Below, piece by piece: positions 1,900-20,065 of a stretch of 20,065 bases of DNA (the stretch's first letter is position 1; each line of letters opens with the position of its first letter). Location: contig NC_057755.1 of NCBI RefSeq assembly GCF_004010195.1, forward strand, positions 1,019,023 to 1,039,087, in the 5' to 3' direction. The position numbers and the translations under genes are program-made. Under the pieces are notes generated by a model that was given only the letters and a program-made list of their open reading frames with translations, had not been told where the DNA came from and made no database searches. This DNA comes from Chiloscyllium plagiosum (Eukaryota).

Positions 1900-2860
1900 T
1901 ACATTAAATTGTATTTACTTCCATATAATATGCGGAACAGGGAAGTCTGATGAACTGAGGGCGTGGTTCTGAGCATGGGACTGCGATGTCACAGCAATTA
2001 CACAGATGTGTTTCAGGCATTGAGAGGACTGGAACCTTAAATTTGCAGGAAGGAAAGAAGGTTGACAAGAGAATTGGGGGAGCTATGTTTTTAGTAAGCG
2101 ATAACATAATGGCTGTACTTGGGGAGAGTATTCCTTGGAATACAGTCAGGCAGTTTATTTTGGTGGAACTGAGAATGAAGAGAGGGATGATCACTTTTAG
2201 GCATTGTATCTGGACCCCCCAGTAGTCAGTGGGAAGTTCCCCAATGATGAAAGACGAATGTCTGCTGAAACCAATCTTCTTCTCCAAGCTTTATAAAGGC
2301 AAACGTAAAAGATGCGAACAACAGAAGAGGTTAAAAGACGTTTTAAAAGCCAACGTGAAGAAATGTAACATCGACATTAACAACTGGGAAACCAGTGTCA
2401 AGGTCAGGATACTCTGACAAACCATCATCCAAGAAGGAACAGCAATCGTTGAAGCAACAAATGTACAGAATTAGAAGAAACGAGGAGAAAACGGAACGCG
2501 TGGCAGCAACAACCAAAGCCCGACCCGCCATCTGGAACTCCTTGTTCTGAATGCGGAAGAACATTAAAAAGCGAGATTGTTCTCATACGCCAAGTGAGTG
2601 CCCATAAATAGATCAACGGAACAAAGACCATCATCCTCGACCTCGAGGCATAACCACGACGACGACAGGTCAGTGTGAAATTGAGAAACAAATTTGTCAG
2701 GTGTTCTGAGTTATTTGTAAGAATAATAGTTTTGTAATGGCAGAGGATTGCCACAGAGATAAGTTTTGAATGGAGAGGAATTTTAACGTCCGTGTATGAA
2801 AATTTTCTCATTCAATATGTGGATATACCGACGAGAAAAGTTGCCAAACTTGACCTCCTC
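1900..2860 (+). pseudogene. CR1 ORF2 APE endonuclease remnant, split by an RTE insertion
   Basis: LNCIYF..GKSDELRAWF*AWDCDVTAIT; GGAMFLVSDNIMAVL; ILVELRMKRGMIT. After the insertion: EIEKQICQ and YENFLIQYVDIPTRKVAKLDLL (ORF track 1986.., 2792..). Confidence 0.85.
2236..2666 (+). mobile_element. 5'-truncated RTE-clade LINE 3' end (BovB/AviRTE-like architecture)
   Basis: Translates MKDECLLKPIFFSKLYKGKRKRCEQQKRLKDVLKANVKKCNIDINNWE (RTE post-RT motif) and then PCSECGRTLKSEIVLIRQVSAHK* (decayed C2H2 finger). Short 3' UTR with hairpin CCTCGA-cc-TCGAGG (2635-2648) and an (ACG)n tail (2656-2666). Flanked by TSD GTCAGTGGGAA (2225-2235) / GTCAGTGTGAA (2669-2679). Confidence 0.85.
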
Positions 2861-4520
2861 GAGTCATGGAGTCATAGAAGTGTACAGCACGGAAACAGAC
2901 CCTTCGGTCCAACTTGTCCATGTCGACCAGATATGCCAATCCAATCTAGTCCCCCTTACCAGGGCTCGGCCCATAACTGTCCTAATCCTTTCTATTCACA
3001 TACCAATCCAGATGTCTTTTAATTGTTGCAATTGTACTCGCCCCCAACATTTCCTCTGGCAGTTCTTTCCATGTACGGACCACCCTCTGCATGAAAAAGT
3101 TGCCCCTTTGGTCTCTTTTCTATCTTTCGCCTCTCACCCTAAAACTATACCCTCTACTGCTGGATTCCTCCATTTCAGGGAAATGACTTTGTCTATTTAT
3201 CCCATGAATGCCCCTCATAACGGCATCCCTCAGCCACCGACGCTCCAGATAAAAACAGTCCGAGCCTATTCAATCTCTCCCTGTAGCTCAGAACCTACAA
3301 ACCTTGGCAACGTTCTCGTAAATCTTTTCTAAACCCTTTCAAGTTTAACAACATCTTTACGAAAGAAAGGAGAGCAGAATTGCACACAATATTCCAGTAG
3401 TGGCCCCACCAATATCCTGCAGAGCCGCAAAATGCCCTCCCAACTCTTCTACTCAATACTTTGACCAATAAAAGGAAAATTACTAAAGGCCTGCTTCATT
3501 ATCCTATTTACCTGCCACTCCAAATTCAAGGAGATATGAACCTGCACTCCAAGGTCTTTTTGTTCATCAACACTCCCTTGGACCTTACCATTAAGTGTAT
3601 AAGTCCTGCCCAAGATTTTTTTTTCCTAAAATGCAGCACCTCACATTTATCTAAATTAAATTCTATCTGCCTCATCTCATTGGCCCATCTGATCAGCATC
3701 CCATTATAATCTGAGGTGACCTTCTTCGCTATCCACTACATCTCCAATTTTGGTGTCATCTGGCAATTTACGAACTGTACCTTGTATGCTCTCATCCAAA
3801 TCATTTGTATAAATGATGAAAAGTAGTGGACCCAGTAATGATCTTTGTGGCACTCCACTGGTCACGGGCTCCAGTCAGAAATCAACCATCCATCACCAAC
3901 CTCTGTCTTCTACCTTTGAGCCAGTTCTGTATGCAAATGTCTAGTTCACCCTATATTACATGAGGCTAATCTTGTTAACCAGTCTACCATGGGGAACATT
4001 GTTGAACGCCTTACTGAAGTCCACATAGATCACGTCCACATCTCTACTCTCATCAATACTCTTCGTTAGTTCTTCAAAAAACACAATCACATTTGTGAGA
4101 AATGATTTCCCACACACAAAGCTATATTGACTCTCCCTGATCAGTTCTTCTCTTTCCAAATACATGTACATCCTGTCCATCAGGTCTATTGTTCCCTTAC
4201 TTGTCCTTACCACCTTTCTTAAACAGTAGCTCCAAGTTAGACAATCTCCAGACTTCCAGGACCTCACTTGTGACTAGATATGATACAGATAACGCAACAA
4301 GAGGCCCAGAAATCACTTCCCGAGCTTCCCATAATTCGAGTGTACACCTGATCGTTTTAATGCGTTTCAAGACATTCAACAATTCCTCCTGTGTACTATG
4401 GACATTTTTAAGATGTCACCATCTATTTTCCTACATTCTATATCTTCCATGTCATTTTCCACTGAACATACTGGTGCAGAATTCTCGTTTAGTATCGCCC
4501 ACTTCTCCTGCAGTTCCACA
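2861..4520 (-). mobile_element. 5'-truncated CR1 LINE, antisense, nested in the host CR1
   Basis: Begins with the reverse complement of the CR1 tail (GAGTCATGGAGTCATAG). Minus-strand ORFs give RT motifs IRESQYSFVCGKSFLTNVIVFFEELTKSIDESRDVDVIYVDFSKAFNNVPHGRLV (3956-4267) and LWEAREVISGPL..WRLSNLELLFKKGGKDK (4197-4382). Confidence 0.9.
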
Positions 4521-4529
4521 GAAACACCG

Positions 4530-5538
4530 TACAAAGAAATTGAGGGTTTGGTTAAGAAAACGAAGGAAGCATATGTCAGGTAGATACAGGATAGATCGAG
4601 TAAATCCTTAGAAAGTAAAAAGGCAGTAGGAGTATGCTAAAGAGAGAAATCAGGAGGGCAAAGGGGGGTTCTGAGAAAACTTTGGCAAGTAGGATTATGG
4701 AGAATTCAAAGTGATTACATAAACACATTAATTAGACAATAGCGTGATGAAGGAGAGAATTGGACCTCTCAAAGATCAGCAATGCAGCCAAACTGTGGAA
4801 CGCCATGAGATGGGTGTCATTGTTTACTGTGGAGAACGATATAGAAGATATTGTATGTGGGGAATGATGGTGACAGATTGAAGAATATCCATAATACAGA
4901 GGAGGAGGTGTCGGATGTCTTAAACTATATAAAGGTCGATAAATCCCCAAGGATGATCAGGTGTGTCCTCGAACCCCATGGGAAGTGAAAGAAGTGATTA
5001 GTGGGACCCTTCCTGAGATATTTGTATTATTGATAGTCACAGGTGAGAGGCTGGAATACTGGAGTTCTCTGACGTGGCGCCGGTATTAAAGGAAGGTGGT
5101 AAGGTAAATCCAGGGAACTATAAACTAGTTAATTTTACATCTATTGTGAGTAAGTTGTTGGAGGGTGTCCTGAGGAATAGGACTTGCATGAATTTGGAAA
5201 GGCACCGACTGTTTAGGGATATTCAGCGAGGCGTTGTTCGTGGTACATCATGTTTCACGAACTTGACTGAGTTTTTTGAAAATGTAACAAAGAGGATTGA
5301 TGAGGCCGGAATGGTCGACATGATCTATATGTGTTTCAGTGAGGCGATCAACAGGGTTATGCATGGTAGACTGCTTAGCAAGGTTCGACCTCGTTGAATC
5401 CAGGGAGAACTAGCCACTTAGATACAGAAGTGGTTTGAAGGTCGAAGACAGAATTTGGTGGTGGAGGATTGCTTTTCAGCTTGGATGCTTGTGGTCAGTG
5501 GTGTGCCACAAGGATCGGTGCTGTGTCCACTCTTTTTC
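4530..5538 (+). pseudogene. CR1 ORF2 tether and reverse transcriptase remnant (host element)
   Basis: KEIEGLVKKTKEAYVR; ORF 5074-5397 PVLKEGGKVNPGNYKLVNFTSIVSKLLE...CFTNLTEFFENVTKRIDE...; then VSGVPQGSVLCPLF at ~5493-5538. Confidence 0.9.
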
Positions 5539-6571
5539 TTTGTTTTTAATCATTTATAGGATTTAGGCGTTGCTGGCTAGCCAGCATTGATAGCTCATCC
5601 CTATTTGCCCTTGAGAAGGTGGTGCTGAGCTGCCTTCTTGAATCGATACAATGTAATTCCTGTGTGTTTACACATAATGCCAGGAGGGAGGAAATTCAAG
5701 GATTTTCACCCAAAAACTGTGAAGGTACGGTGGCATATTTCCAAATGAGGGTGGAGAGTGGGTTGGAGGGATACTAGCAGGTGGTGGTGTTCCCAAGTAC
5801 CTACTACCCTTGTCCTTCTAGATAGAAGTGGTCGTGTGTTTGGATTGTGCTGCCTAAAAACCGTTGGTGAATTTCTGCAGTGCATTTTGTAGAGTGGACA
5901 CACTGCTGCTATTGAGCGATGGTGGTGGAGGGATTCAATGCTTGTGAATATGGTGTCAATCAAGCTGGTTGCTTGGTCCTGGATGATGTCAAGCCTCTTG
6001 AGTGTTATTGGAGCCACCCCTATTCAGGCAAATAGGGATCTTCCATTACACTCCTGACTTGTGCCTTGTCGAGGGTGGCAAGAATTTTGTGTCACGAAGT
6101 GACTTACTCACCACAGTATCACTAGTCTCTGACCTGCTTATGTTGACACTGTGTTCATGTGGTGAGTCCAGTTGAGTTTCTGATCACTGAACCCCAATAG
6201 TGTTGACAGTGGGGGTTCAGTGATGGCAATACCGTTGAATGTCAAGGGTCGGTGGTTAGAATGTCTCTTACTGGAGACGGTCGTTGTATTGCATTTGTGT
6301 GGCGGTAATGTTACTTGCCACTTGTCGGTCCAAATCTGGATATTGTATAGATCTTGTTGCATTTGAGCTGGGAGAGCTTCAGTATCTCAGGATTCGCTAA
6401 TGGTTCTGAGCATGGTGCAATCATCAGCCAACGCCCCCTCTTCTGACCTTATATCACAGAGAAAGTCGTTGATGAATCTGCTGAAAATTGTTGGGCCGAC
6501 GACACTACCTTGAGGGACTCCTGCAGAGATCTCCTGGAGCTGAGATGACTGTCCCTCCACAAACACAATCA
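5539..6571 (-). mobile_element. 5'-truncated LINE of a distinct CR1/L2-group family, antisense
   Basis: Minus-strand RT motifs SAGVPQGSVVGPTIFSRFINDF..ALADDCTML (6387-6572), QQDLYNIQIWTDKWQVTL..HKC (6138-6362) and LKRLDIIQDQA..SLHHHRSIAAVCPLYKMHC (5706-6017). Its 3' end (T-rich on +) is at ~5539-5580. The host CR1 frame (PLF / IYINDL..ADD-like) resumes at ~6572. Possible short TSD TTTTTC at 5533-5538 / 6572-6577. Confidence 0.87.
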
Positions 6572-7493
6572 TTTTTCATCATTCATATAACGACATGGAT
6601 GTGAACTCAGGATGTACAGTTAGCGTGCAGATGACAGCAAAATTGTAATTGCAGTGGACAGGGAAGAAGGACACCTCAATGTACAATTGTATTTTGATCA
6701 GGTGGGTAAATGGGCTGATGAGTGACAGATAGAGTTTAAATTATTTAAATGTGAGGCGCTGCAAGTTGGAAAGGCAAATCAGGGCAGAATGTACACATTT
6801 AATGATAATGCCCTGGAGAATGTTGCTGGCCAAAGAGAACTTGGAGTGCAGGTTCATTGTTCCTTGAAAGTGGTGTTTCAATGGATAGGACAGTGAAGAA
6901 GGTGTTTGGTATGCTTCCCTGTATTGGTAACAGCAGGATATTGTTTTCGCCATTTTTGGAATAACGTGTACATTTCTGTTCTCCCTCCAAAAGGGAGGAC
7001 GTTGTGAGACTTGAAAGAAGTTCAAAAAAGACTTACAATGATGTTGCCAGTGTTGGAAGGTTTGAGATACAGGGAGAGGCTGAAAAGGCAAAAGATAGTT
7101 TCCCCATAGATTCGAGGACCGAGAGGTGACTTTATGGAAGTTTATAAACTCATGAGGGGCATGGACAGTGATAATAGATAAAGTCTGTTTCCTAGGGTGA
7201 CGGAGTCCAGAACTAGAGGACATAGAGTTAGGGTCAGAGGGGAAAAGTTTAAAAGGACCGAAGGCCAACTTTTTCACGCAGAGCGTGGTACATATATGCA
7301 ATGCACTGCCAGAGTGAGTAATGGAGGCCAGTGCAATTACAATACATAAAAGGTAGCTGAATGTTCAATTGCATGGAAACTGTTGATGGGGAAATGAGGG
7401 CAAATTTGACTAGACTAATTTAGGGTATCTGATCAGCATGGATTATACGGGCAAAAGGATCTATTCCCATACTGTATATCTCTATGACTCCAT
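6572..7493 (+). mobile_element. 3' part of the host CR1 (RT C-terminus, 3' UTR, tail)
   Basis: Decayed IYINDL / ADDSKI motifs at ~6580-6645. The typical CR1 C-terminal sequence AGAACTAGAGGACATAGAGTTAGGGTCAGAGGGGAAAAGTTTAAAAGG is at ~7209-7256, and the tail TCTATGACTC is at 7481-7490. Confidence 0.88.
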
Positions 7494-7611
7494 ATCTGCA
7501 CGGTAGTCAAAGAGAAGTACAACAAATGTCCTAGATGAATATCAGCACTTTAAATATCAATCTTTTTTTTAGAAATGAATACCGGTCTTTATCTTGCAAT
7601 GACACAGTCTT

Positions 7612-7750: not shown

Positions 7751-8308
7751 CAAATCCCTTTCATTTATTTCAAAAAAATGTTTCACTTCCCAACCTGCCT
7801 CCCAGAAAGAATTCTTAGAATCAGAGAATCGGACTGGACAGAAGAGATCCTCCATTCTATCCAGTTTGTGCTGTCAAAGCGACACGAAATTTACACGCGT
7901 CCCAGCGTCCAGCACTAAACTCATTTTGAGTAAAATGACGCTTCAAGTGTTCACCCAGGTGTTTTTTTTAAAAAAAACCTTGTGAGGTTTCCTGATTCCA
8001 CGATTCTCCCAGTCACTGAATTACCAGACTTCCATCACTCTCTGAGTGAAAGCCTCTTCCTCAAATCCCCACCAGTCCTCTTTCTTTTCATCTTAATAGA
8101 TATGCCCTACCCATTCCCATCATCTGTCGAATTCCTGCCCACACTTAGACAAACGGAGGATTGAGCAGCTTCGAAATGGGTCAGGCCATTGGAACTGTCC
8201 TCTTCAAACCTAACATCTGAGCACTCCCAGCTGACCCAATTAGGTGCTAAGATCCTGCATTGCTGTCTGATCGAAACGGACAATGTTTGATCAGTAATTT
8301 CCAATTTC

Positions 8309-8332
8309 CATTTTGCCTTCTGTCTCTTTCAG
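8309..8332 (+). promoter_or_regulatory. 3' splice acceptor (polypyrimidine tract + CAG) of the GPCR coding exon
   Basis: CATTTTGCCTTCTGTCTCTTTCAG lies immediately before TT AAT GTC..., i.e. (V)N of TM1. Phase 1, matching the phase of the donor at 14036. Confidence 0.75.
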
Positions 8333-9224
8333 TTAATGTCCTGGTGATGTTGATGCTCCACGTGGAAAGTGTCGTCTTTTTAACTGCACAACGCGCTGCC
8401 TGGTGGCTATGGCAACGTTGGTCTACTTGTTCATTTTCAGGACGATCATATTATGGCAACTCAAATTCTTTTACTTCCCACGGTGTTTCCTGGATCTTAC
8501 CCATGTGTGTAGTGCTGTCTTTCTCCTGGTCATGGCAAAAACAGACTGTTCCATCTGATTCACTGTCCTTTTTTTTTTATCGTTTTGTGGCCATTTTCTG
8601 CCTGAAAATGAAGAGAAAATATTGGACAGAGAAATCCTTGGCTGTGGCTCTCACGATAACTGGCATTTTGCTCTGTTAAAAAAAATACTTGTTTCTATTT
8701 TTGGTTTAAACCAGTGAAGACAATTGACGATGTTCCGTGGTTGTGCCAAACAAAGTCAAGTTATTTTACTGTTCTCGGATGGCTGGGATTTACGTGCTTT
8801 GATATTGTCCCATTCATGTTAATTCTGTTGATGAATATTCTGAAGGACAGGTACGTTTTAGTGGAGAGTCTAGTCCTCAAGGGCCTGAGGGGTCATTGGA
8901 AGGGAGAGAGTCGCAAAGATACGGAGATGGAGTGCTGGAGGAAGTCAGTGATTTACCTCCTCAACATAACCATCAGCTTCATATTTCTGTGGTTAGCATA
9001 CGGGTGAAATTATCTTGTACTTTGGCATTAAAGGAATGAATACTGCGAACTATAAATATCTAGTCGATTTTAAGTCTGTCGGAGAAATGCTGAAGGATTT
9101 CAGCTGCAGCACAAGCACATCATTTTATGCACTGAGCCTGTTCAAGTGGAGAACGAAGTTCAGGAATGCGGTTCACCAACTGATCACGTAAACTCTTCAC
9201 TTAATGATTCAGCAAAACAACTGA
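8333..9224 (+). pseudogene. Class A (rhodopsin-family) GPCR pseudogene, main (second) exon; shark-expanded 'GPR139-like' orphan receptor family
   Basis: Frame-corrected translation: (V)NVLVMLML/RGKCRLFNCTTRCLVAMATLVYLFIFRTIILWQLKFFYFPRCFLDLTHVCSAVFLLVMAKTDCSI*FTVLFF/YRFVAIFCLKMKRKYWTEKSLAVALTITGILLC/NTCFYFWFKPVKTIDDVPWLCQTKSSYFTVLGWLGFTCFDIVPFMLILLMNILKDRYVLVESLVLKGLRGHWKGESRKDTEMECWRKSVIYLLNITISFIFLWLAYG*/LYFGIKGMNTANYKYLVDFKSVGEMLKDFSCSTSTSFYALSLFKWRTKFRNAV. It has a 7TM hydrophobic pattern with YRFVAI at the DRY position. Lesions: frameshift ~8358, TGA 8556-8558, poly-T slip 8569-8578, poly-A slip/TAA 8677-8679, TGA 9005-9007, TAA 9189-9191. The family name comes from recalled motifs, not a search. 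Confidence 0.88.
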
Positions 9225-9449
9225 CAGAGCTCAAGAGGCAGCCGCAGTGTTCCTCGTGCAGGAATTACATTTGTACAGCCAGGAATCCGTCAGCACAATC
9301 ATATGTATCTGAGTATAACACCCAGCGGTGGATGGGAAGGAAGGGTAACACCTAGGGTCACCATTCACCACGCTCAGGAACAAATCAGATTGTCAGGAAT
9401 CAGACAATCTGATTGACTGACAGATTGTCACATACGGGGACACACAGCC

Positions 9450-9645
9450 AATGAGCAGCAGGAAGCCATTCAGCCCTTCGGGTCTGGTTCTCCTAACATA
9501 GCAGAAGATCGTGGCTCATCCAATTGTAACGTCAAACCTGTATTTCAATGTGCCTTTGAGGATCATTCACGTCCACCCCACAAAGCCACCAGCGAAAACC
9601 TGAAAAATAATTTAACCACCCTCGCCTTCAACAATACTGAAGGAC
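9450..9645 (-). mobile_element. Old CR1-type 3'-end fragment, antisense
   Basis: GAGCAGCAGGAAGCCATTCAGCCCTTCG...AAGATCGTGGCTCATC resembles the reverse complement of a CR1 3' terminal stem-loop region. Heavily diverged. Confidence 0.5.
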
Positions 9646-10034
9646 GTAATAAAAGGGACAGCAGGGACTGCCAGGGGCAGGGCAGGATGGAAATGTGCTG
9701 CAGGCGTGATTTGAAATATCGGACTGGCTGTGAGTGATGGGTTCAGCTGGAACATTAGGTCTTCATGGACTGCCATGTGGATAAGTGTTAAAGACAGGAA
9801 ATTGGGTTATCTGCATTACCTGTGCAAGGGAGGAGGGGAAGGGCAGAATCTATACCTCCTGCACCATGATGATTGTCAGACTCTCTCTGTTCAGCTCAGA
9901 ATAAACACTTCATTCCAGCAAGAGAAAGATTGTGATCAGCTCATCTGTATGTGTATTATTTTATTCAGTTTTCTTTATTTTTCAGAGAGTTTCTTGAGCC
10001 CAGCTCCTGTATCCTCCCATCACAAGGATATTGC

Positions 10035-10325
10035 CATCTCTCTATTTCTCTGCCTCTTTCTGTCTGTCTTGTCTCTTTCCCTCCCTTCCTCTCTTTCTCT
10101 GTCTCTGTATCTCTCTCCCTATCTCTGAATTTCTTGCTGTCAGTCTCTCTTTTCATGTGCCTCTCTTTCTGTGTGTGTGTGTAAGCCCCTCTCTCAATCG
10201 CTTGGTGTGTCTGTCTGGATTTCTCTCGCTCTCCTCTGCCTCTGTCCCTTTATCTCGCTCTCTGTCTATCTCTGTCTCTCTCTATGTCTCTCTGTCTGTC
10301 TTTCTCTCTGTCTCTTTTTTCTCTC
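10035..10325. repeat. Degenerate (CT)n/(CTGT)n low-complexity tract with a short (GT)n
   Basis: Directly visible pyrimidine-rich simple repeat; it produces the Leu/Ser-rich spurious ORFs in the track. Confidence 0.9.
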
Positions 10326-10599
10326 GTCGACTATTTCGAACATTTGTTATCTGAGTTCCGTAATTGTTCACGTGCATTGGCTCAAATCCATTCCTGATCT
10401 CTTCATTCATTGATTTTACCCCAAAACACAAAATCTCTCTGCAAACTGTCTGCTTCCCTCTCCCAACTTGACTTCCCATCTATTTTTGTCCGATCTGTAA
10501 ATCTGGCAACAGTACGTTCACTTCCTTAATCAGTCATTCAAATGCACATTATTGCACGTTTCATAACGTACGTATAATATACACGACTCATTCTTGTAT

Positions 10600-11065
10600 C
10601 GATCTATTTGTGTATAAACATTGCTTTGCATTGGAACTGATCCTGTTTACATGTAAATATTCATCTGCATTGAAACCATTTCTGTTTATTAATAAACATT
10701 TTTTAATGGGAACTTTGCTTATAAATATAAATATTGTTATATTTGGTAACTGTTCGTAATTATAGTTAAGTCCTGTTTTGTTTTTGAGCTGTTCACGCTT
10801 TTGCATAATCATTTTTGTGTCTTGGAATCTCTATAGCTGATATACAAACATTGCCATGCATTCGAGCTTTAATGGTGAATAGATGTAATATCGTGCTTCG
10901 GAACTGTTTACGTGTGCATAAATATTGTCATGTATTGGAACAGTTCGTGTTTATGTGTACTGTTCTGTAATTGAACTGATCATGTTTGTGAATAAATATT
11001 GTTGTGTATTGGAGCTGTTCCTGTTTATATATAAACATCAGTGTGCGTTGAAGCTGTGCCTGTCT
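10600..11065. repeat. Degenerate ~39-bp minisatellite, about 12 units
   Basis: Unit approximately TAAATATTGTTGTGTATTGGAACTGTTCCTGTTTATGTA. The TAAAYAT anchor recurs at 10615, 10654, 10693 and at 10993, 11032 (39-bp spacing). Confidence 0.8.
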
Positions 11066-11269
11066 CCGAATCATCAGCGACACTGTGTCTGACCATGTAG
11101 TGTGAATGCTGAGCTCCTTCGGTGCTTTGGGATGGATGTGCAGTCCCTGTGCCTGCTGGAAGGGCAGCTGCACACAGAAGCATCGGTCACATTTTATCGG
11201 TTATGTGGAATAAATAGGCAGAGAAATCTGATTTCTCATTATATATTCGGGGAACAATAACTGAAGAGC

Positions 11270-11645
11270 ACCGGGGAAGAGAGAGAGTAGACGTTAAAGA
11301 GTGTAATAGACAGACAATTCAAGAGCGAATAATTTGGAAAGGATTAAACTGACGGTAATAAGGAGAGGGTTAGATAGAAAGTAATAGGAAATAGATTTTT
11401 TTAAAAAAAGGAAAGATGAGTAGGGTTAAATATAGGAGCAGAGGATGTAATTTAAAACAAAGTAATAGAGAGATGTGTAAATGAAGAGATATGGAAAGAA
11501 GACTGAATACATGCAAAGCGTTAAAGAGAGGGGAAATGGAGAGGATGTAATTCAAAGTAATAGGAGGAGAGATATATGCAGATATATACAGTGGAATGAA
11601 GTGTGTTGACTTTGGGGATCACGGGGAGAGGGTTAATGCAGGGAA
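11270..11645. repeat. Purine-rich low-complexity / decayed tandem repeat
   Basis: A/G-rich tract with recurring AAAGTAATAG (~11377, ~11459, ~11554), GAGGATGTAATT (x2) and GAGAGGGTTA (x2). Confidence 0.5.
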
Positions 11646-11774
11646 AGATGTAATGGTTATAACAAGGTCAGCCAGATGGATCTCAAAGTCCCCCTTACAT
11701 GCCATCCGGTCCCCACAAAGTCCCGTCGTTCTTTAGCTTTCTGTAGTTGTTTTGCATTGAAAAAAAGTAGTCAG

Positions 11775-12920
11775 TTCTATTGTCCTCTGCGGCATTGATT
11801 CGATGCCAAGTGTACCCTTCCTCAGATGAGGCGACCAAAACTGGGCCTACTCCTCCAAGAGTGGGCATTTCCAGTCTCCATGGAATTGCAGAACTGCGTT
11901 ATTCCGTCCTGAGCTCAAGTCGATGATCTCCAAAGTAGCATTTGCCTTTCTCATCTCCTGCTGCACCTACACATTGGTTTCCAGTGACTCAGGAATAAGG
12001 ACAGAGAGATCCCTTTTGGTGTTCAAAACTTCTCAATCCCTCTAATGCGTCAAAAATTCTTTCAGTTTATTTCTCCTCTAAAAAAATCGCTAACATCACA
12101 TTTATTTATGTTCCAACTGCCATGTTATTGCTCAGACACTCCATAAACTCCTCATTCAGAATGCAACTATACAACGATAATGCAATTATCACTCTCTGCA
12201 ATATTACATCTGCAGTGATCTACAGTAAGCAATTATGCAGACTGAATCTGACCCAATCATGGAACACTGTTTGAAATATGAAGATGAATTTCATGAATAT
12301 TGAGATGCCGAATACCTGACGCAGTGAGAGGCTACTGTCAAAGGCAGTGCATTTGTAAATAAAGGGTGATTTTTGACAGGATGCCGGCCTCTGAAGAGTT
12401 ATTTCGCAAACCAGACATTGTTGGTGTAACTGTGAACCAGGACCATGGGCTCTTCACTTCCGGACTTTCCGATTCCTGCACCTGTCCAATCCTAGAAAAG
12501 CCTACACCCCAAGTTATGCTGAAGTTGTCCTGTGACGTTCTCGATGCTAAGCGCTGTTGAGAAAATATACAATCCTGGATTCTGAACTGAAATGAAAGAA
12601 GAATGCCTCCCGATTTTGTACATTATATTGATCAGATTATTTTCTACTCATTCACTCACGGAAACTGTCTTTCCTCTGTTCAGCGTTCCTGTGTACTCCT
12701 TGCTTATTACAGATCCAAATAACATTGTGCCATCAACAAATATCACACATGATTCCATCTTCTCAATCATTGATACTGATTATAAATGGCTGTGTCTTGA
12801 CATTTGATCCTTGTGGCACTCACTAAGACTACCACCACAACATGAAAATGATACATTTATTCCTGCTCTCTGGTATCTCTCCATTATCAGTCCTCACACC
12901 ATGTCCCATTTCCCTATCAC
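11775..12920 (-). mobile_element. Old CR1 ORF2 fragments, antisense, in two pieces (11775-12142 and ~12645-12920)
   Basis: TTCCTCAGATGAGGCGACCAAAACTG (reverse complement encodes QFWSPHLRK, the CR1 VQFWSPY motif), CATTTGCCTTTC and TAACATCACATTTAT. The second piece contains TGATCCTTGTGGCACTCACTA (reverse complement of the VPQGS motif). Confidence 0.7.
12272..12406 (+). mobile_element. Possible internally deleted solo-LTR-like remnant
   Basis: Terminal inverted repeat TGAAATA (12272-12278) / TATTTCG (12400-12406), with AATAAA at 12358-12363 near the right end. It sits between the two CR1 pieces. No TSD seen. Confidence 0.35.
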
Positions 12921-13561
12921 TACACATCTCATGGACAACAGTGACACCTGCTCAAATACTGCCAGAATTTGACATTTCTGCATCTTTGTGTGTGCAAATC
13001 CCTCGTTGACCTCACTCCACCATCGTGCTTGATGTTGTTTCATTCCATCATCAGTCAGATCTTTTAGGGTTCTTCTCAGTATATGTGAAATACACTGTAA
13101 TGAACAGAGAATATCACATCCACATATACTGCAGCACAAATCATGTGTGTCTCATGACAACTCTGAAACATGACCAGGGCACTGTTATCCTGGTAGGAGG
13201 ATCCGTATTGATCGGAACTTATGCAACCTTTGAGGTGACTTATTTTATCTGTTTCAATTATTGACTGAATTGGAAAGTTATATTTGATTCTGAAGCTATA
13301 TCCACACAGAATGAGGAATTCTATAGCGATGTGGGATTTATTAAAACCTACAATGCGTCGTCGATATTAACCAACTATCATCCCGTCAGGCAACAGCCGC
13401 TGATAACCCGGGAAGTGACACCCCAGTGTTGAGAAGAACGTTTCCTACAGAGATACCCAACAAGCGGAATTTAAATTCCAAATGATCAAAGTCAGGAGAA
13501 GGACGACCCTGTATTAAATTGAGATTTCAATATTTGTTAGATGGTGTTGAATTACAAAGCA

Positions 13562-13700
13562 GGTACACAGTGATTCAGTGATTAGCCCTGCTGCCTCATA
13601 GAGCCAAGTTGTTATTGGTGGTTGGATACCCTTAAAGGTTTGCTCTGGACTCGATGGGCTGAATGGCCTGATTCCACATTGCAAAGATTCTATGATTTTA
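13562..13700 (+). mobile_element. HE1-type tRNA-derived SINE with a large internal deletion
   Basis: tRNA-like head CAGTGATTCAGTGATTAGCCCTGCTGCCTCATAGAGCCA (A-box remnant 13571-13581; B-box missing) joined to a CR1-like tail GGACTCGATGGGCTGAATGGCCTGATTCCACATTGCAAAGATTCTATGATT. Confidence 0.8.
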
Positions 13701-13968
13701 TTTGATGTCCGTTTGCCAATGTTTGTTATTGACCGAGTGAGATTTGGATCATCGAATAATGTCAGGTCTAATAATACCCTACAACAACTGGGAGTAAAGT
13801 CACGACTGTCACCTGTTTGTTCAAATTCTTATATCATTGAATTGAACTACATTGTAATGTAACATTTCCCCAGGCAATGTCAGCAGATAGAAATGAAAGG
13901 CTTTGAGATTGTGTCACCTCGGTATTGAGTACAGAGAGATCGCCTGCACAAAGAGCTTCAGGCAGAAA

Positions 13969-14035
13969 ATGACGTTCTCATTTGGTCATTTGTGGACAAT
14001 ATTTTAGACGACCTTTCCGTTTGTAACAATTCCTG
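13969..14035 (+). pseudogene. Short first coding exon of a second GPCR paralog ('GPR139-like'), with a premature stop
   Basis: GAAAATG start; translates MTFSFGHLWTIF*TTFPFVTIP followed by G|GTAAGT (perfect donor at 14036). 67 nt gives phase 1, which would join a TT-AAT exon like the one at 8333 to make the TM1 'IP-VN' motif. TAG at 14005-14007. Confidence 0.68.
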
Positions 14036-15404
14036 GTAAGTGCCTTGCAAACTTGAATTTATGTGAATCTTGCTGAGGATTATCTGCGGGTTCACTCTGC
14101 CACTGACAACGATACATGGGCATGTTGTCATGTTGTGCCAAAAGCCACACAATGGCAGACGTTCAGTGACTTAGTCTCAAATTATGGACACCCCTTGGAA
14201 TCCCCAGCATCGCTGATTCCACAGGAATTACCTTGGAAATTATTCATCTCTTCTGGGAACTTTCAGAAATCATCTCTATTTCAATCGAAGACTACAGAGA
14301 ATTTCGATGGAATGAAGAAAAGGAATCACTTTGGAAATTATACGCATTTGGATTTTTAGATGGAGAGTACAAAGTCATTTAGATTGCTTTTGTTTCTTTT
14401 TTTTGAGTGAATAAGCAATGGGCTTCTCTGATCATCTGAAGTCAATGGTTTACTTGAAGTTATTTCTGTAATCACAGAGGTTTGTTTTAAAAACTATGTT
14501 TGGGATTTGACTACAGGCAGATTGGCTTTGTCAACGACTGAACCTTTGTTTATTTTTGATACCTTACAACCCAGAATGGTATTAATGGAGCCTGAAAGAT
14601 ATTTTGGAGAGTTCTGGAAATTGCGATTATGGAAGAAAGCCGTAACTGAGAAAGCATTACATTCATTTCGTCATTTCTTTTAGCTACTGCAAGACCCTGA
14701 GTGGATGTATAGATCAGCGATCATGCAAAGGAAATGAAAGTTTCTATCAATTCCATTGCCTTGGAATGAAAATCTTATGTTGGTCCCAGACAGAAGTGTT
14801 GTCACAAAAAAAAGTTGTGAAGAGAGTGTTTAAAGCTGAGTACGTTAACATTCAGGTATGTGGGAGCTCCAGGAAGAAATTTACTGTAGTTTCAGTTTAG
14901 AAATGGCAATCACAAGTCATTTAACCAAGTGATAGATACAGGGAGTCTTGAGTGAGTTTTATGTGAGGGTTGCTTTCTTTGGACGGCACCGGGAGCCGTG
15001 CTTAGTATGATTTCTAGAAGTTGCATCCTTTTATGCCATTTGTGCATTGTTTTGAGGTTAATGGGAATTATACATTTATGCTGTGTTCATTGCCTTTGAA
15101 ACTGCATTATAAGTACGTAGTTGCATTTATTCTATTTTGTCTTCATTTTTTGTAAGAAACTTCTGTTTTGTTGTGGAAGCAATATTTGCAGCATTGTGTG
15201 TTTACGATTCAGCAAGAGATCACATTGTTAAATCAATACAAATGAGGTTGAAATCCATCAAGCTGGGTTTTTATCGATGATCTGGCTTGTTCTGTAATTA
15301 ATCAGCTGGTATCAGAACAGAAGTGAGGCTATTAAATACTTAGACACACTCCCGATGAACGTATAAACTAACCCCACACTTCAAGTAGGTTGTGTCACAA
15401 CTAT

Positions 15405-15612
15405 GAGACAGTGACGTCTGCAGATGCTGGAGATCAGAGTTGAGAATGTATTGCTGGAAAAGTACAACAGTTCAGGCAGCACTCGAGGAGCAGGAAGATT
15501 GATGTTTCAGCCCAGAGTCCTGATGAAGGGCTCTGGCCCGAAAAGTCCATTTTCCTGCTCATTGCATGCTGCCTGACCTGCTGTGCTTTTCTAGCAATGC
15601 ACTGTCAACTGT
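15405..15612. mobile_element. Penelope-like-element-derived palindromic (fold-back) repeat
   Basis: Arm 15438-15517 is the reverse complement (about 80% by eye) of arm 15531-15610; the centre is TCCTGATGAAGGG. Confidence 0.82.
15514..15552 (+). ncRNA. Degenerate minimal type I hammerhead ribozyme motif (Penelope-type)
   Basis: CTGATGA (15520-15526) + extra A + stem II GGGC-TCTG-GCCC (15528-15539) + GAAA (15540-15543) + AGTC, with a GTC cleavage triplet at 15545-15547. The palindromic ACGT stem III and stem I are mutated, so it is probably inactive. Confidence 0.6.
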
Positions 15613-15843
15613 GTCCCAAGTTTATCTTTCCAGATCCATTATATGCTCCAGACCCTGATCAGACATCCACGCTGAGTTGTAATTCCATCTTACCCCTCTC
15701 AAAGTTACTACTCTTACTCTGCACCACAGTAATCATAAAATGCATTCTCTCACACCCTGCCAGACCTGTAACTCTGGAACTAAATGAGACACTGGGTTGC
15801 GGATACATATGCTGTTTATTTAACAGTTCTGGTGATCTCCGAG

Positions 15844-16000
15844 AAGAAAGTGAGTACCGCTGATGCTGGAGTCCAGAGTCGAGAGTGTGTTGCTGGGAAC
15901 ACACAGCAGGTCATGCAGCATCCGAAGCAGGAGTTTTGACATTGAGGACATAAGCCCTTCACCAGGGCTTAGTCTCCAGCTCCTCGGATGCAGCCTGACA
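15844..16000. mobile_element. Second copy of the Penelope-derived fold-back repeat (partly deleted right arm)
   Basis: GATGCTGGAGTCCAGAGTCGAGAGTGTGTTGCTGGGAACACACAGCAGGTCATGCAGCATCCG matches 15423-15490. AAGCCCTTCACCAGG is an antisense decayed CTG(A/G)TGAAGGGC core. Short return arm CTCCTCGGATGCAGCCTGAC. Confidence 0.8.
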
Positions 16001-16019
16001 TTTTTTTCATTACCGAGCA

Positions 16020-17104: not shown

Positions 17105-18442
17105 AAGTTCACATCTCCCTATTTGCATTTTACATTATTTGCTGTCTGAATGTACAAGCCGAATTAGAACATTTCCGACACTTGACAAGGAATTGTTCAC
17201 TTTCCAATACAAACTATAAGGGATTCAGTCAGTTAACAGAACTTCAGTGTATCATCACAGAGAAGGGTCAGATTGTGGTTTGCACCTTTAATGATGAAGC
17301 AAATCTTTTCAGCTCAGTTAGCATTGCCCGTCAAACAATCACATTTTCTGAAATGCAATAACTCATGCCTTTGTAATTTAGTGACCAGACGATTCCAGGT
17401 AATCCTAATTGGAGAAAGGGAAAAGATTGTGGCTGTGAGAGCTGATCCTTGTTTAAGGTATTTCAGGTATCGGCGCTGATGTACACAAAATCCTGGAAGA
17501 GTAATTATTGTTTTATGAGCTATTGCATTGCTTTAGAAATCTGGGGAAATGAAAGATCAAAGCAACACAATTTATAAAAGGAGGGTCATGTGTGGGAGAG
17601 TTCATAGCATAGGAGCAGCTAAGTGCATGGTTTTTAAGTGTAATCTTGCTGACTGTTTTTGTGTACATCGACAATACTAAGGAGATTGAGTTGTGATTGA
17701 GTATAGGTTTTATTGAGATCTGTCTCTCCATTAAAATATTACAAATAAAAAGCACAAGTACAATGTTAGCCTTGAGCTGTGTCTTTTAAATCAGTAAGAC
17801 TATTTTCTGTGCCTGTCGATTATCGAGGGGCAAAAATCGCCTTTAGAAGAGTGATGTACTCTTCTTGTTGGATGTGGGAGATTCTGGAGAGTTTCCATGT
17901 TACTGATGATTCTGTCTACAGTAAATATGTTTGGTTGTGAATTCTATCATATCGCATGGATCTGCTGGAGCAGGAGTTGGAGACAATGAGGAATTTTTAG
18001 GAGCTAGGGAGTCTGATGGATGGCAGCGACAGGAAGTGAAAACAAAAGCACACTTCATCAGTTAGATGGGTTATCCCAAGAAAAGGCAGGAGAGGGAAAT
18101 GTGTACTGCAGGAGGCTCCTGTGGCTGCACCCATCTTAAACAGGAATGCTGTTTTGGAAAATGTCGGGTGAGATAGACTCTTTGGGAAATGTAGCACGAA
18201 CAGCCAAATTTTTGGGACCAAGACTGGATCGAAAGTAATGAGGGGTACGTCAGGTTCAAACGATTAATTGTGAAAGGGGAATCTCTCGTCAGTGACACAT
18301 ACAGACGTTTCTGCATCCAAGACCGCGTATTACCTCTTGGTGCCAGTATCAAGGATATCGTGGAGAGCGTGCAAAATATTCTAAAAAGCGAGTGGGATCA
18401 GCAGAAGGTTAATGTGTGCATTGGAACTAACAACATAGGAAG
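17105..18442 (+). repeat. Paralogous copy of window 1-~1520 (flank + CR1 5' region + ORF1 remnant)
   Basis: Exact anchors TGACAAGGAATTGTT (79-93 / 17183-17197) and TCAGTGTATCATCACAGA (140-157 / 17244-17261), offset 17104; TGTGGGAGAGTTCA (671-684 / 17591-17604), offset 16920. ORF1 remnant from 17836: IAFRRVMYSSCWMWEILESFHVTDDSVYSKYVWL*ILSYRMDLLEQELETMR. Confidence 0.88.
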
Positions 18443-19932
18443 GTGCAGGAAGCAAGGGTTTAAATTCATGGATCACTGGGGTATGTTTTGTGGTAAGCAT
18501 AAATTATACAAGAGAGACAGTTTCCACCTTAATAGGTTGGGGACCAGCATTCTGGCAGGCTGGTTTGGTACTGCAAAACAGCTGCGTTTAAACTAAGTAG
18601 CGGGCGGGGGGAGGGGACAAACTGGATGTTTAAGAAGGAAAATGAAGGAAAAGTTAGAACAAGGGGAGTCAAGAAAGACAACTGTATCAATGAAGCAGAA
18701 AACTCAAAAAGGGATCATGCTGCAAGGTTGAGTTAAAAAGCAGTTGATGGGAAACGTGAGGGCAATAACAAATTAAAAATACTATATATGAATGCACGAA
18801 GCATTAGAAAGAAGATGGATGAGCTTGAGGCTCTTTTGGAAATTGGCAGATACGATATTGTGGGGATAACTGAGGCGTGACTTCAAGTGGACAGGGCCTG
18901 GGAAATGAATACTCAAGGCTACACGTGCTATTGTAAGGACAGACTGACGGGCGGGGTATGTGTGGCCATGTTGGTAAGGGATGATATTCAGTCCCTTGCG
19001 TGGGAGGACATAGAATCAGGCGATGTAGAGTCAGTATGAATAGAGCGGAGAAATTCTAAGGGTAATAAGACCTTCTTGAGAGTTATCCACAGGCTCCCAA
19101 ACAGTAGTCTGGATGTCGGATGTAAGTTGAATCAGGCGCTGAAATTGGCCTGTCGCAAAGATGTTACTACAGTTGTTATGGGGGATTTCAACATGCAGGT
19201 AGACTGGGAGAATCAGGATGGTATTGGACCTCAAGAAAGAGACTTCGTGGAGTGCCTCCGAGATGGATTCGAAGAACAGCTGGTGCTGGAGCTTACCAGG
19301 GAGAAGGCAATTCTGGATATGGTATTGTGCAACGAACCAAAATTGACCAGGGACCTCGATGTGATGGAGCCATTGGGAAGTAGTGGCCATAATACAATAA
19401 ACTTCAATCTGCAAATTGAGAGGGTGAGGGTACAATTGGAAGTGACAATATTTCAGTTGAATAAAGGGAACTATGAGGGAGGAGCTGGCCAAAGTTCAAT
19501 GGCTCAATACCTTAGCAGTGATGACAGTGGAGAAACAATGGCAGATATTTCTGGGTATAATGCAGAAGATGCAGGATCAGTTCATTCCAAAAAGGAAGAA
19601 AGATCCTAGGAGGAGGACTGTGTGGCCGTGGCTGACGAGGGAAGTTAAGAAACATATAAAGTTAAAAGAGAAAAAGTATAACATAACAAAGATCAGTGGG
19701 AAAACGGAGGATTGGGAAGCTTTTAAAGAACACCAAAGGATTACTAAGAAGGAAATACGCAGAGAAAAAATGAGGTACCAAGGTAAACTGGCCAAATATA
19801 TAAAGGAGGATAGTAAAAGCTTTTTTTTTAGGTATGTGAAAGGCAATAAAATGGTTAAGGCTAAAATTGGGCCCTTGAAGACAGAAACAGGGGAATGTAT
19901 TACGGGAACAAAGAAATTGCAGAAGAATTATA
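18443..19932 (+). mobile_element. Younger CR1 LINE of a different family: end of ORF1 esterase + ORF2 APE endonuclease and tether
   Basis: ORF1 end CRKQGFKFMDHWGMF..LYKRDSFHLNRLGTSILAG (stop 18596). ORF2 reads LKILYMNARSIRKKMDELEALL..YDIVGITEA*, VVMGDFNMQVDW, TREKAILDMVLCNEP, PLGSSGHNTINF, WPWLTREVKKHIK. Few lesions: TGA 18878-18880, TGA 19037-19039, frameshift ~19473. Confidence 0.92.
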
Positions 19933-20065
19933 TTTCCAGTGCGAGCAGCAGCGAAGGTAAGACCGTTTGGTTTTAAAAGTACTTACCGGTAGCGGGCAGG
20001 GGTGTTTTTTTTTTCTCTTTCACTCTCTCTTCACAGAAAGAGCGGAAGCACCAGGGGGAAGTGAC
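19933..20065 (+). mobile_element. Probable 5' UTR of a further (CR1-like) element interrupting ORF2; runs off the window
   Basis: ORF2 similarity stops abruptly after KEIAEEL. The sequence becomes CpG-retaining, with a GGTAAG...CTTACC inverted repeat (~19956-19987) and GAGCGGAAG / GGAAGTGAC motifs. The identification is by resemblance only. Confidence 0.4.

Follow-up and report, generated by a model that had tools for sequence, protein, structure and literature searches.

Two dead receptor exons at a bamboo shark locus and an apparently undescribed elasmobranch family with a diversified pocket

What does it mean when the second exon of a receptor gene is followed, on the same strand, by a first exon of the same receptor family? 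This question is raised by a 20,065-nt stretch of the bamboo shark Chiloscyllium plagiosum (contig NC_057755.1 of assembly GCF_004010195.1, positions 1,019,023 to 1,039,087), hereafter the window, in whose coordinates all positions are given. Over its whole length the window holds a single exon 2 and a single exon 1 of one G protein-coupled receptor (GPCR) family. In the reading proposed here, a dead gene (A) would have left its 3′ exon here and, after it, a neighbour that is also dead (B) its 5′ exon, both genes belonging to a two-exon, rhodopsin-class (class A) family. Behind them stands a large elasmobranch expansion of mislabelled receptors, apparently undescribed, whose pocket is diversified.

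Exon 2 of gene A lies at 8333-9224 on the forward strand and, from tblastn, frameshift-aware alignment and a family profile, corresponds to a class A GPCR from the end of transmembrane helix 1 (TM1) through TM7 and helix 8. The intron end before it (8300-8332, forward strand) consists of a polypyrimidine tract and an AG acceptor ending at 8332. With residues 110-225 of one reading frame as the query, 2 of 18 candidates matched, both annotated as 'probable GPCR 139' of Chiloscyllium punctatum. With one of these two, P0004, as the tblastn query (P numbers are our handles for the proteins collected), the exon was recovered at E 7.5e-64 across three frame segments (8361-9188) and at E 4e-17 in a fourth segment. 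Its identity to bamboo and epaulette shark proteins is 60% in frameshift-aware alignment (170 of 283 residues to P0004, 169 of 280 to P0007). The exon carries four frameshifts (about 8359, 8574, 8677 and 9011-9017), has lost 15 nt near 8803, in TM5, and is cut short by TGA stops at 8556 and 9005; positions 2.50, 3.49 and 7.49 are altered. This exon is a pseudogene beyond reasonable doubt. A probable 3′ untranslated region (UTR) remnant would extend over 9225-9653 on the forward strand, where the first AATAAA after the exon stands at 9648 and paralogous contigs also map to 9220-9340 and 9403-9524.

Exon 1 of gene B follows at 13969-14035, again on the forward strand, with an ATG at 13969, 22 codons and one further nucleotide (67 nt), and would encode the N-terminus and the first half of TM1. 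It ends in phase 1 at the splice donor GTAAGT (14036-14041, forward strand), so that its final G and the TT that opens exon 2 make up the Val of the family's P/VN junction. In family proteins the Met typically stands 22 residues before this junction, which is the length of the window exon; the family length is here derived from proteins, not from DNA. An in-frame TAG occupies codon 13, where the family has Tyr. The exon is the only ATG-N64-GTRAG in the window. Its protein score ranks 7 of 39,988 sites and first among the 2,244 with GT in register, and 300 shuffled windows gave 225 sites with an equal score, none of which had a GTRAG donor. The 24 nt before the ATG (13945-13968, forward strand), a putative 5′ UTR remnant of gene B, resemble the relatives' sequence upstream of theirs. 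Adding 4-8 upstream codons to the model, built on 10 relatives whose gene models extend upstream of the ATG, contributed 6.6-9.0 bits, as high a score as 0.02-0.06% of window positions reach, and brought exon 1 to rank 1 in the window; in shuffles, 0-1 sites in 200 scored as well, none with GT. An upstream model of 3 relatives had been chosen after the likeness was noticed, and the result was the same with all 10 that pass a looser rule. The best single match is P0080 (6 of 22 residues), which belongs to the clade sister to that of exon 2 of the window, and no relative's gene model reading through the exon 1 donor was found for comparison. Because the donor stands in exact register and the upstream codons are alike as well, exon 1 is significant, and it is very probably homologous to the family.

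An earlier note on this DNA, made from its letters alone, had described a frameshifted seven-transmembrane exon behind a clean acceptor and, downstream, a 67-nt exon 1 with a donor of matching phase. Homology, lesions and splice sites confirm both, together with the TAG at codon 13 that the note does not mention. Three of its details fared less evenly. Its motifs belong to the family consensus, while the window itself reads TRCLVAMA, IDDVPWLC and DTEMECWRKS. The end of exon 2 that it gave, 9224, is the older family stop (TGA 9222-9224), the closest subfamily stopping at TAA 9189-9191. The Pfam 7tm_1 model that it named as a check matches no single-frame piece of exon 2; with the frame breaks bridged by X, the exon reaches 331 bits on a family profile built from 47 relatives.

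Since exon 1 lies downstream of exon 2 on one strand, two genes are the simplest reading, and we consider it quite likely that the locus holds two separate genes in tandem. As against an orphan remnant of exon 1, a head-to-tail array is likewise the likely arrangement. The locus yields no receptor.

Are the lesions of exon 2 shared by other individuals and organisms? DNA and RNA reads and contigs were compared over a 1.8-kb stretch that includes exon 2, exon 1 lying outside it. Another public run of the window's organism has contigs over 8285-9374; they come in three pieces, which differ from the window at 2, 2 and 1 letters and hold one gap. If that gap lies in the poly-T run, one frameshift would differ between individuals, and the other lesions remain. 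Loose contig ends at 8808 show that paralogs retain the 15 nt deleted in the window copy. The counterpart in organism B (about 96% alike) has a 20-nt gap of its own, by length arithmetic, and further deletions, and that in organism C (about 95% alike over 350 nt) is seemingly without the 15-nt deletion and the 1-nt insertion; from B's own gap and C's two missing lesions, the decay of pseudogene A appears to be ongoing. Contigs at 80% or more on the stretch number 572 in the window's organism (A), 478 in B and 301 in C, which are not copy numbers, and some stem from repeats at the ends of the stretch.

How large is the family to which these remnants belong? With P0004 as the query, 1,681 of 2,528 candidates pass, and among the matches listed (the best 120 of the 1,681) all come from sharks and rays. 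Heterodontus francisci alone contributes 72 of these 120, on 20 scaffolds, with 32 on a single 74.47-Mb scaffold; seven Chiloscyllium accessions on one scaffold fall within 68 numbers, and close accession numbers on shared scaffolds are seen in three species. A profile search gave 132 representatives at E 1e-30 or better, and 9 of 10 divergent ones that were looked up are elasmobranch. No holocephalan is among the named matches, holocephalans not having been searched for. Intact relatives match Pfam PF00001 (P0004 at 44.8 and P0017 at 72.3 bits; cut-off 30.5). Judging from sequence, this is an elasmobranch expansion of a two-exon class A GPCR family. An old GPR139/GPR142-like lineage, which amphibians and sturgeon have once per species, would have given rise to it in sharks and rays, with copies arising by duplication, often in clusters, and dying by frameshift and nonsense mutation.

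The annotation of the family is poor. RefSeq models P0004-P0006 and P0013 wrongly translate the conserved intron end (8245-8332) as N-terminal protein. Misleading automatic names are also found in the family (opsin BCRH2-like, CCR3/CCR8-like, vasopressin V2-like and capa receptor-like), and the ESM Atlas carries the same names.

What the intact members might do is best approached through their ligand pocket. Entropy was computed over 26 cavity positions, the other outer-half TM positions and the inner-half TM positions, in generic helix numbering and with lists of positions that we take to line the cavity. Among 72 Heterodontus paralogs (76% mean identity) it amounts to 1.48, 0.83 and 0.36 bits, respectively (permutation p 0.0003), and among 43 other elasmobranch proteins to 1.52, 1.04 and 0.47 (p 0.005). 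In 20 amphibian orthologs of a related gene (79% identity) the order is reversed, with 0.24, 0.44 and 0.48 bits. When the Heterodontus paralogs are subsampled to 20, the effect persists, with a cavity entropy of 1.31. Site by site, variation in Heterodontus agrees with that in the other elasmobranch species (Spearman 0.85). The first pocket list was written after the alignment consensus had been seen, and a second, generic list led to the same result; the protein rows being related, the p-values are descriptive. The pocket is hypervariable among shark paralogs and conserved in amphibian orthologs, and this difference is new here. D2.50, DRF, N7.49, Y7.53 and C3.25 are kept in 98-100% of both elasmobranch sets. 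The structural model of P0017 (predicted local distance difference test score 79.9) has seven helices and helix 8, with a beta-hairpin in the second outer loop, and this model and the motif table place the class A marks N1.50, D2.50, DRx and NxxxY in intact members. In Foldseek its best matches are peptide receptors, and GPR139 is absent among the 49 matches listed.

A conserved signalling face combined with a variable pocket is the pattern of a ligand-diversified repertoire, and a diversified ligand specificity is, in our judgement, likely. Intact members would share an inner face for G-protein coupling and offer many different ligand pockets, each copy perhaps with its own preference among small dissolved molecules. 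In the wider clade, aromatic amino acids and peptides are the favoured ligands (PMC8557429, PMC12208981). By analogy, amino-acid derivatives or short peptides can be put forward tentatively as the ligand class.

The earlier note had also given the family as 'probable GPCR 139' and supposed it to be multi-copy, and both hold, the former by the labels of the matched shark proteins and the latter by the passing candidates and the contigs of the window's organism. Its clustered birth-and-death repertoire agrees with scaffold-level clusters in relatives, with pseudogenes and with pocket hypervariability. As a whole, its interpretation stands for the exons, their death, the family, its many copies, scaffold-level clustering in relatives and birth and death; adjacency at the locus and the head-to-tail array we infer.

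To what use would such a repertoire be put? The role that seems most plausible is the sensing of chemical cues from outside, at an epithelium that is sensory or forms a barrier, although external chemosensing, rather than immune or other use, can be no firmer than a tentative choice. Taken jointly, two dead tandem genes, an elasmobranch expansion, a ligand-diversified repertoire and external chemical sensing form the explanation towards which we lean slightly. A bolder version, in which an unrecognised chemoreceptor repertoire of sharks and rays descends from a GPR139-like ancestor and in some species outnumbers the V2Rs, to which shark olfaction is now ascribed, is doubtful; the catshark has 34 V2Rs and 4-9 each of OR, TAAR and V1R, sharks being described as poor in class A odorant receptors (PMC10116579).

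A number of observations weigh against this joint explanation. The partner exons fall beyond the window, so that the tandem pair rests on exon order inside it, and shared scaffolds and close accession numbers show neither adjacency nor orientation. As a protein, exon 1 scores -0.3 bits as compared with 25-63 for 45 true exons; its codon model reaches 9.4 bits, inside the range of shuffled-window maxima (6.3-17.5) and thus at chance level; and it agrees with the consensus at 4 of 22 residues as compared with 7-14 in 22-residue blocks of exon 2. Exon 1 is recognisable in only 57 of 120 database models, so many of these may be mis-modelled or dead. The variability of the pocket was measured as entropy, which is not positive selection, and with the first pocket list the non-Heterodontus proteins show no significant difference between pocket and other outer-half sites (p 0.10). 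In a single-cell RNA run with the same species label, 6 of 12,955,460 records fall on the 1.8-kb stretch, all partial, none 95% alike and with the tissue not given, and 2 RNA reads at 8578 carry the paralog letter. In the catshark, the top-50 brain-plus-olfactory list contains no GPCR (PMC11979771), and V2Rs account for much of the olfactory expression (PMC10116579, PMC11979771).

The alternative that survives best leaves the anatomy of the locus unchanged and assigns the repertoire to immunity or microbe sensing in leukocytes, skin, gill or gut, in the manner of the formyl-peptide or MRGPR clusters. Immune GPCR clusters with birth-and-death evolution are established, and pocket hypervariability and clustering would fit this use equally well. 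Among solved folds, those of peptide and chemokine receptors come nearest, which counts in its favour, though this is a general class A likeness; by sequence, however, the family is closest to GPR139 and not to chemoattractant receptors. We regard an immune role as rather unlikely.

A different objection concerns the locus itself, where 13969-14035 might be an orphan remnant, or the exon 1 of the same gene displaced by rearrangement or mis-assembly, leaving one broken gene. The sequence seen ends at the window limits, no exon 1 is annotated in the closest relatives' models that could serve for comparison, and the sister-clade origin of the best match, P0080, also fits one gene. Yet relatives occur many per scaffold, and a direct repeat of 66-69% identity, its copies about 17 kb apart, would agree with the duplication of an intron, even if it is largely a long interspersed nuclear element (LINE) and not diagnostic. 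A single broken gene is unlikely, and two tandem genes remain our reading of the order of the exons.

Could the family have expanded without any use for most of its copies? A mostly neutral, repeat-driven amplification in LINE-rich DNA, with relaxed constraint, most copies dead and few functional, would agree with a window that is LINE-rich, with the death of both window copies and the further deletions of organism B's counterpart, and with the 63 of 120 models that have no recognisable exon 1. Relaxation would not, however, spare the inner face, which is as conserved among the paralogs (0.36 bits) as among single-copy amphibian orthologs (0.48), and the paralog pocket varies six times more than the amphibian one, at sites that are the same in Heterodontus and in other species. 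This makes neutral amplification improbable, and a ligand-diversified repertoire the reading that we retain.

The rest of the window also holds repeats. The direct repeat (5-1517 and 17109-18443) runs to the window start and holds the first open reading frame (ORF1) of a LINE and about 740 nt upstream of it; from about 17850 it is presumably CR1-type LINE ORF1, on its motifs. Perhaps an intron that carried an old LINE was duplicated, or else these are two copies of a LINE whose 5′ UTR is long. We do not take the repeat to prove tandem duplication: it contains LINE ORF1, its homology stops at 1517/18443 and independent LINE copies in the window are equally alike (66%), so that it is not diagnostic. 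Two old LINE reverse-transcriptase copies (2850-4473 and 4818-7510) lie in opposite orientation and are 66% alike. At 18440-20065, LINE ORF1 has a deletion near 18445 and passes into an endonuclease region (Pfam Exo_endo_phos_2, E 9e-5) that is better preserved and seems to stem from a different LINE subfamily. Between genes A and B there are a CT-rich low-complexity tract and a decayed minisatellite with a period of about 39 nt (10036-10327 and 10592-11076). Copies resembling short interspersed repeats (15406-15613 and 15845-16019) form direct and inverted pairs, and Rfam gave 0 matches, these copies included.

Why would a family of this size have gone unnoticed? We found no description of an elasmobranch expansion in the literature that was searched; most subscription papers lay outside the search, and the supplements of PMC12361510 and of two preprints may list the family. 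In one search, GPR139 is mentioned by none of the 30 papers listed out of 2,826. There is no mention of the family in the accessible text of PMC12294341, PMC12361510 or the two preprints. The pipeline of at least one shark genome paper drops families above 100 copies (PMC12361510), and this could help to hide a receptor family. What is at stake is a class A family that numbers at least 72 distinct proteins in a single shark, varies in its pocket as ORs do and has apparently been hidden behind a wrong automatic name. The two window copies are dead and matter only as evidence of turnover.

Where the family stands among known receptors was approached through a tree of 73 rows, a chosen subset of about 300 collected proteins, made by a quick search with support from the Shimodaira-Hasegawa-like approximate likelihood ratio test (SH-aLRT) only, and with true GPR139 and GPR142 not included. 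The window's exon 2 sits on a long branch and groups with Chiloscyllium and Hemiscyllium proteins in a clade of six members (SH-aLRT 100). The nearest proteins outside the family come from salamander, coelacanth, teleost and amphioxus; a gene of amphibians and sturgeon groups with the family (SH-aLRT 99), the coelacanth and teleost genes fall outside, and the catshark protein P0209 has no resolved place at the node that joins the family and the amphibian-sturgeon gene. Queried with the salamander protein, the search gave 25 matches, including 20 amphibian clusters, each from another species, and one from sturgeon; no amniote or teleost is among the 25. This gene (P0234, P0293-P0312) is a conserved GPR139-like orphan whose pocket is conserved as well; it occurs in frogs, salamanders, a caecilian and sturgeon.

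By sequence, the family's best match in the PDB is human GPR139, at E 2e-11 and 47 bits, with 78 of 271 residues identical (about 29%). Its pocket residues E3.32, F3.33, H5.42, R6.51 and N7.39 are not kept, the commonest Heterodontus residues at those sites being L/S, R, D, Y and Y/F/W, respectively; W6.48 is kept. By identity and pocket residues, the family is evidently not orthologous to GPR139. That the shark proteins are GPR139 orthologs or recent duplicates with a neuronal (habenula) role, as the database labels, the PDB match and the two exons common to both (PMC7318219) would suggest, is highly improbable, given an identity far below the 70% between human and zebrafish GPR139 (PMC7318219), the lost pocket residues and the amphibian, coelacanth and teleost GPR139-like genes that are closer to the family.

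The family can finally be set beside the systems that it resembles. The amphibian and sturgeon 'probable GPCR 139' (XP_069092602.1 in Pleurodeles) is like it at 32-33% identity and in its place in the tree, but differs in that one cluster per species was found, that the pocket is conserved (0.24 bits) and that P6.50 is present in 80%; this gene is a candidate for finding the ancestral ligand. GPR210A/B, the name that Rinne et al. (2019; PMC6504862) gave to orphans of coelacanth, gar and fishes that lie close to GPR139/142, belong to the same neighbourhood, where coelacanth XP_005988539.1 and the teleost matches, possible counterparts, form the next branches out. The accessible text of that paper does not mention sharks, and its supplement file has one GPR210 table row and neither of the two Ensembl coelacanth identifiers searched. 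GPR139 and GPR142 share with the family a two-exon gene, N5.58 and the lack of Pro at 7.50, whereas the shark family is multi-copy and its pocket residues differ and vary; compared with GPR139, it has lost P6.50 and has Cys at 3.25, where the aligned GPR139 has none. The family is also without W4.50 and has a conserved Lys at 4.56. Although not a member of the OR, TAAR, V1R or V2R families, as it matches Pfam 7tm_1 only, has an intron that splits TM1 and is closest to GPR139, it is like them in its clusters, its pseudogenes and a variable pocket set on a conserved signalling core.

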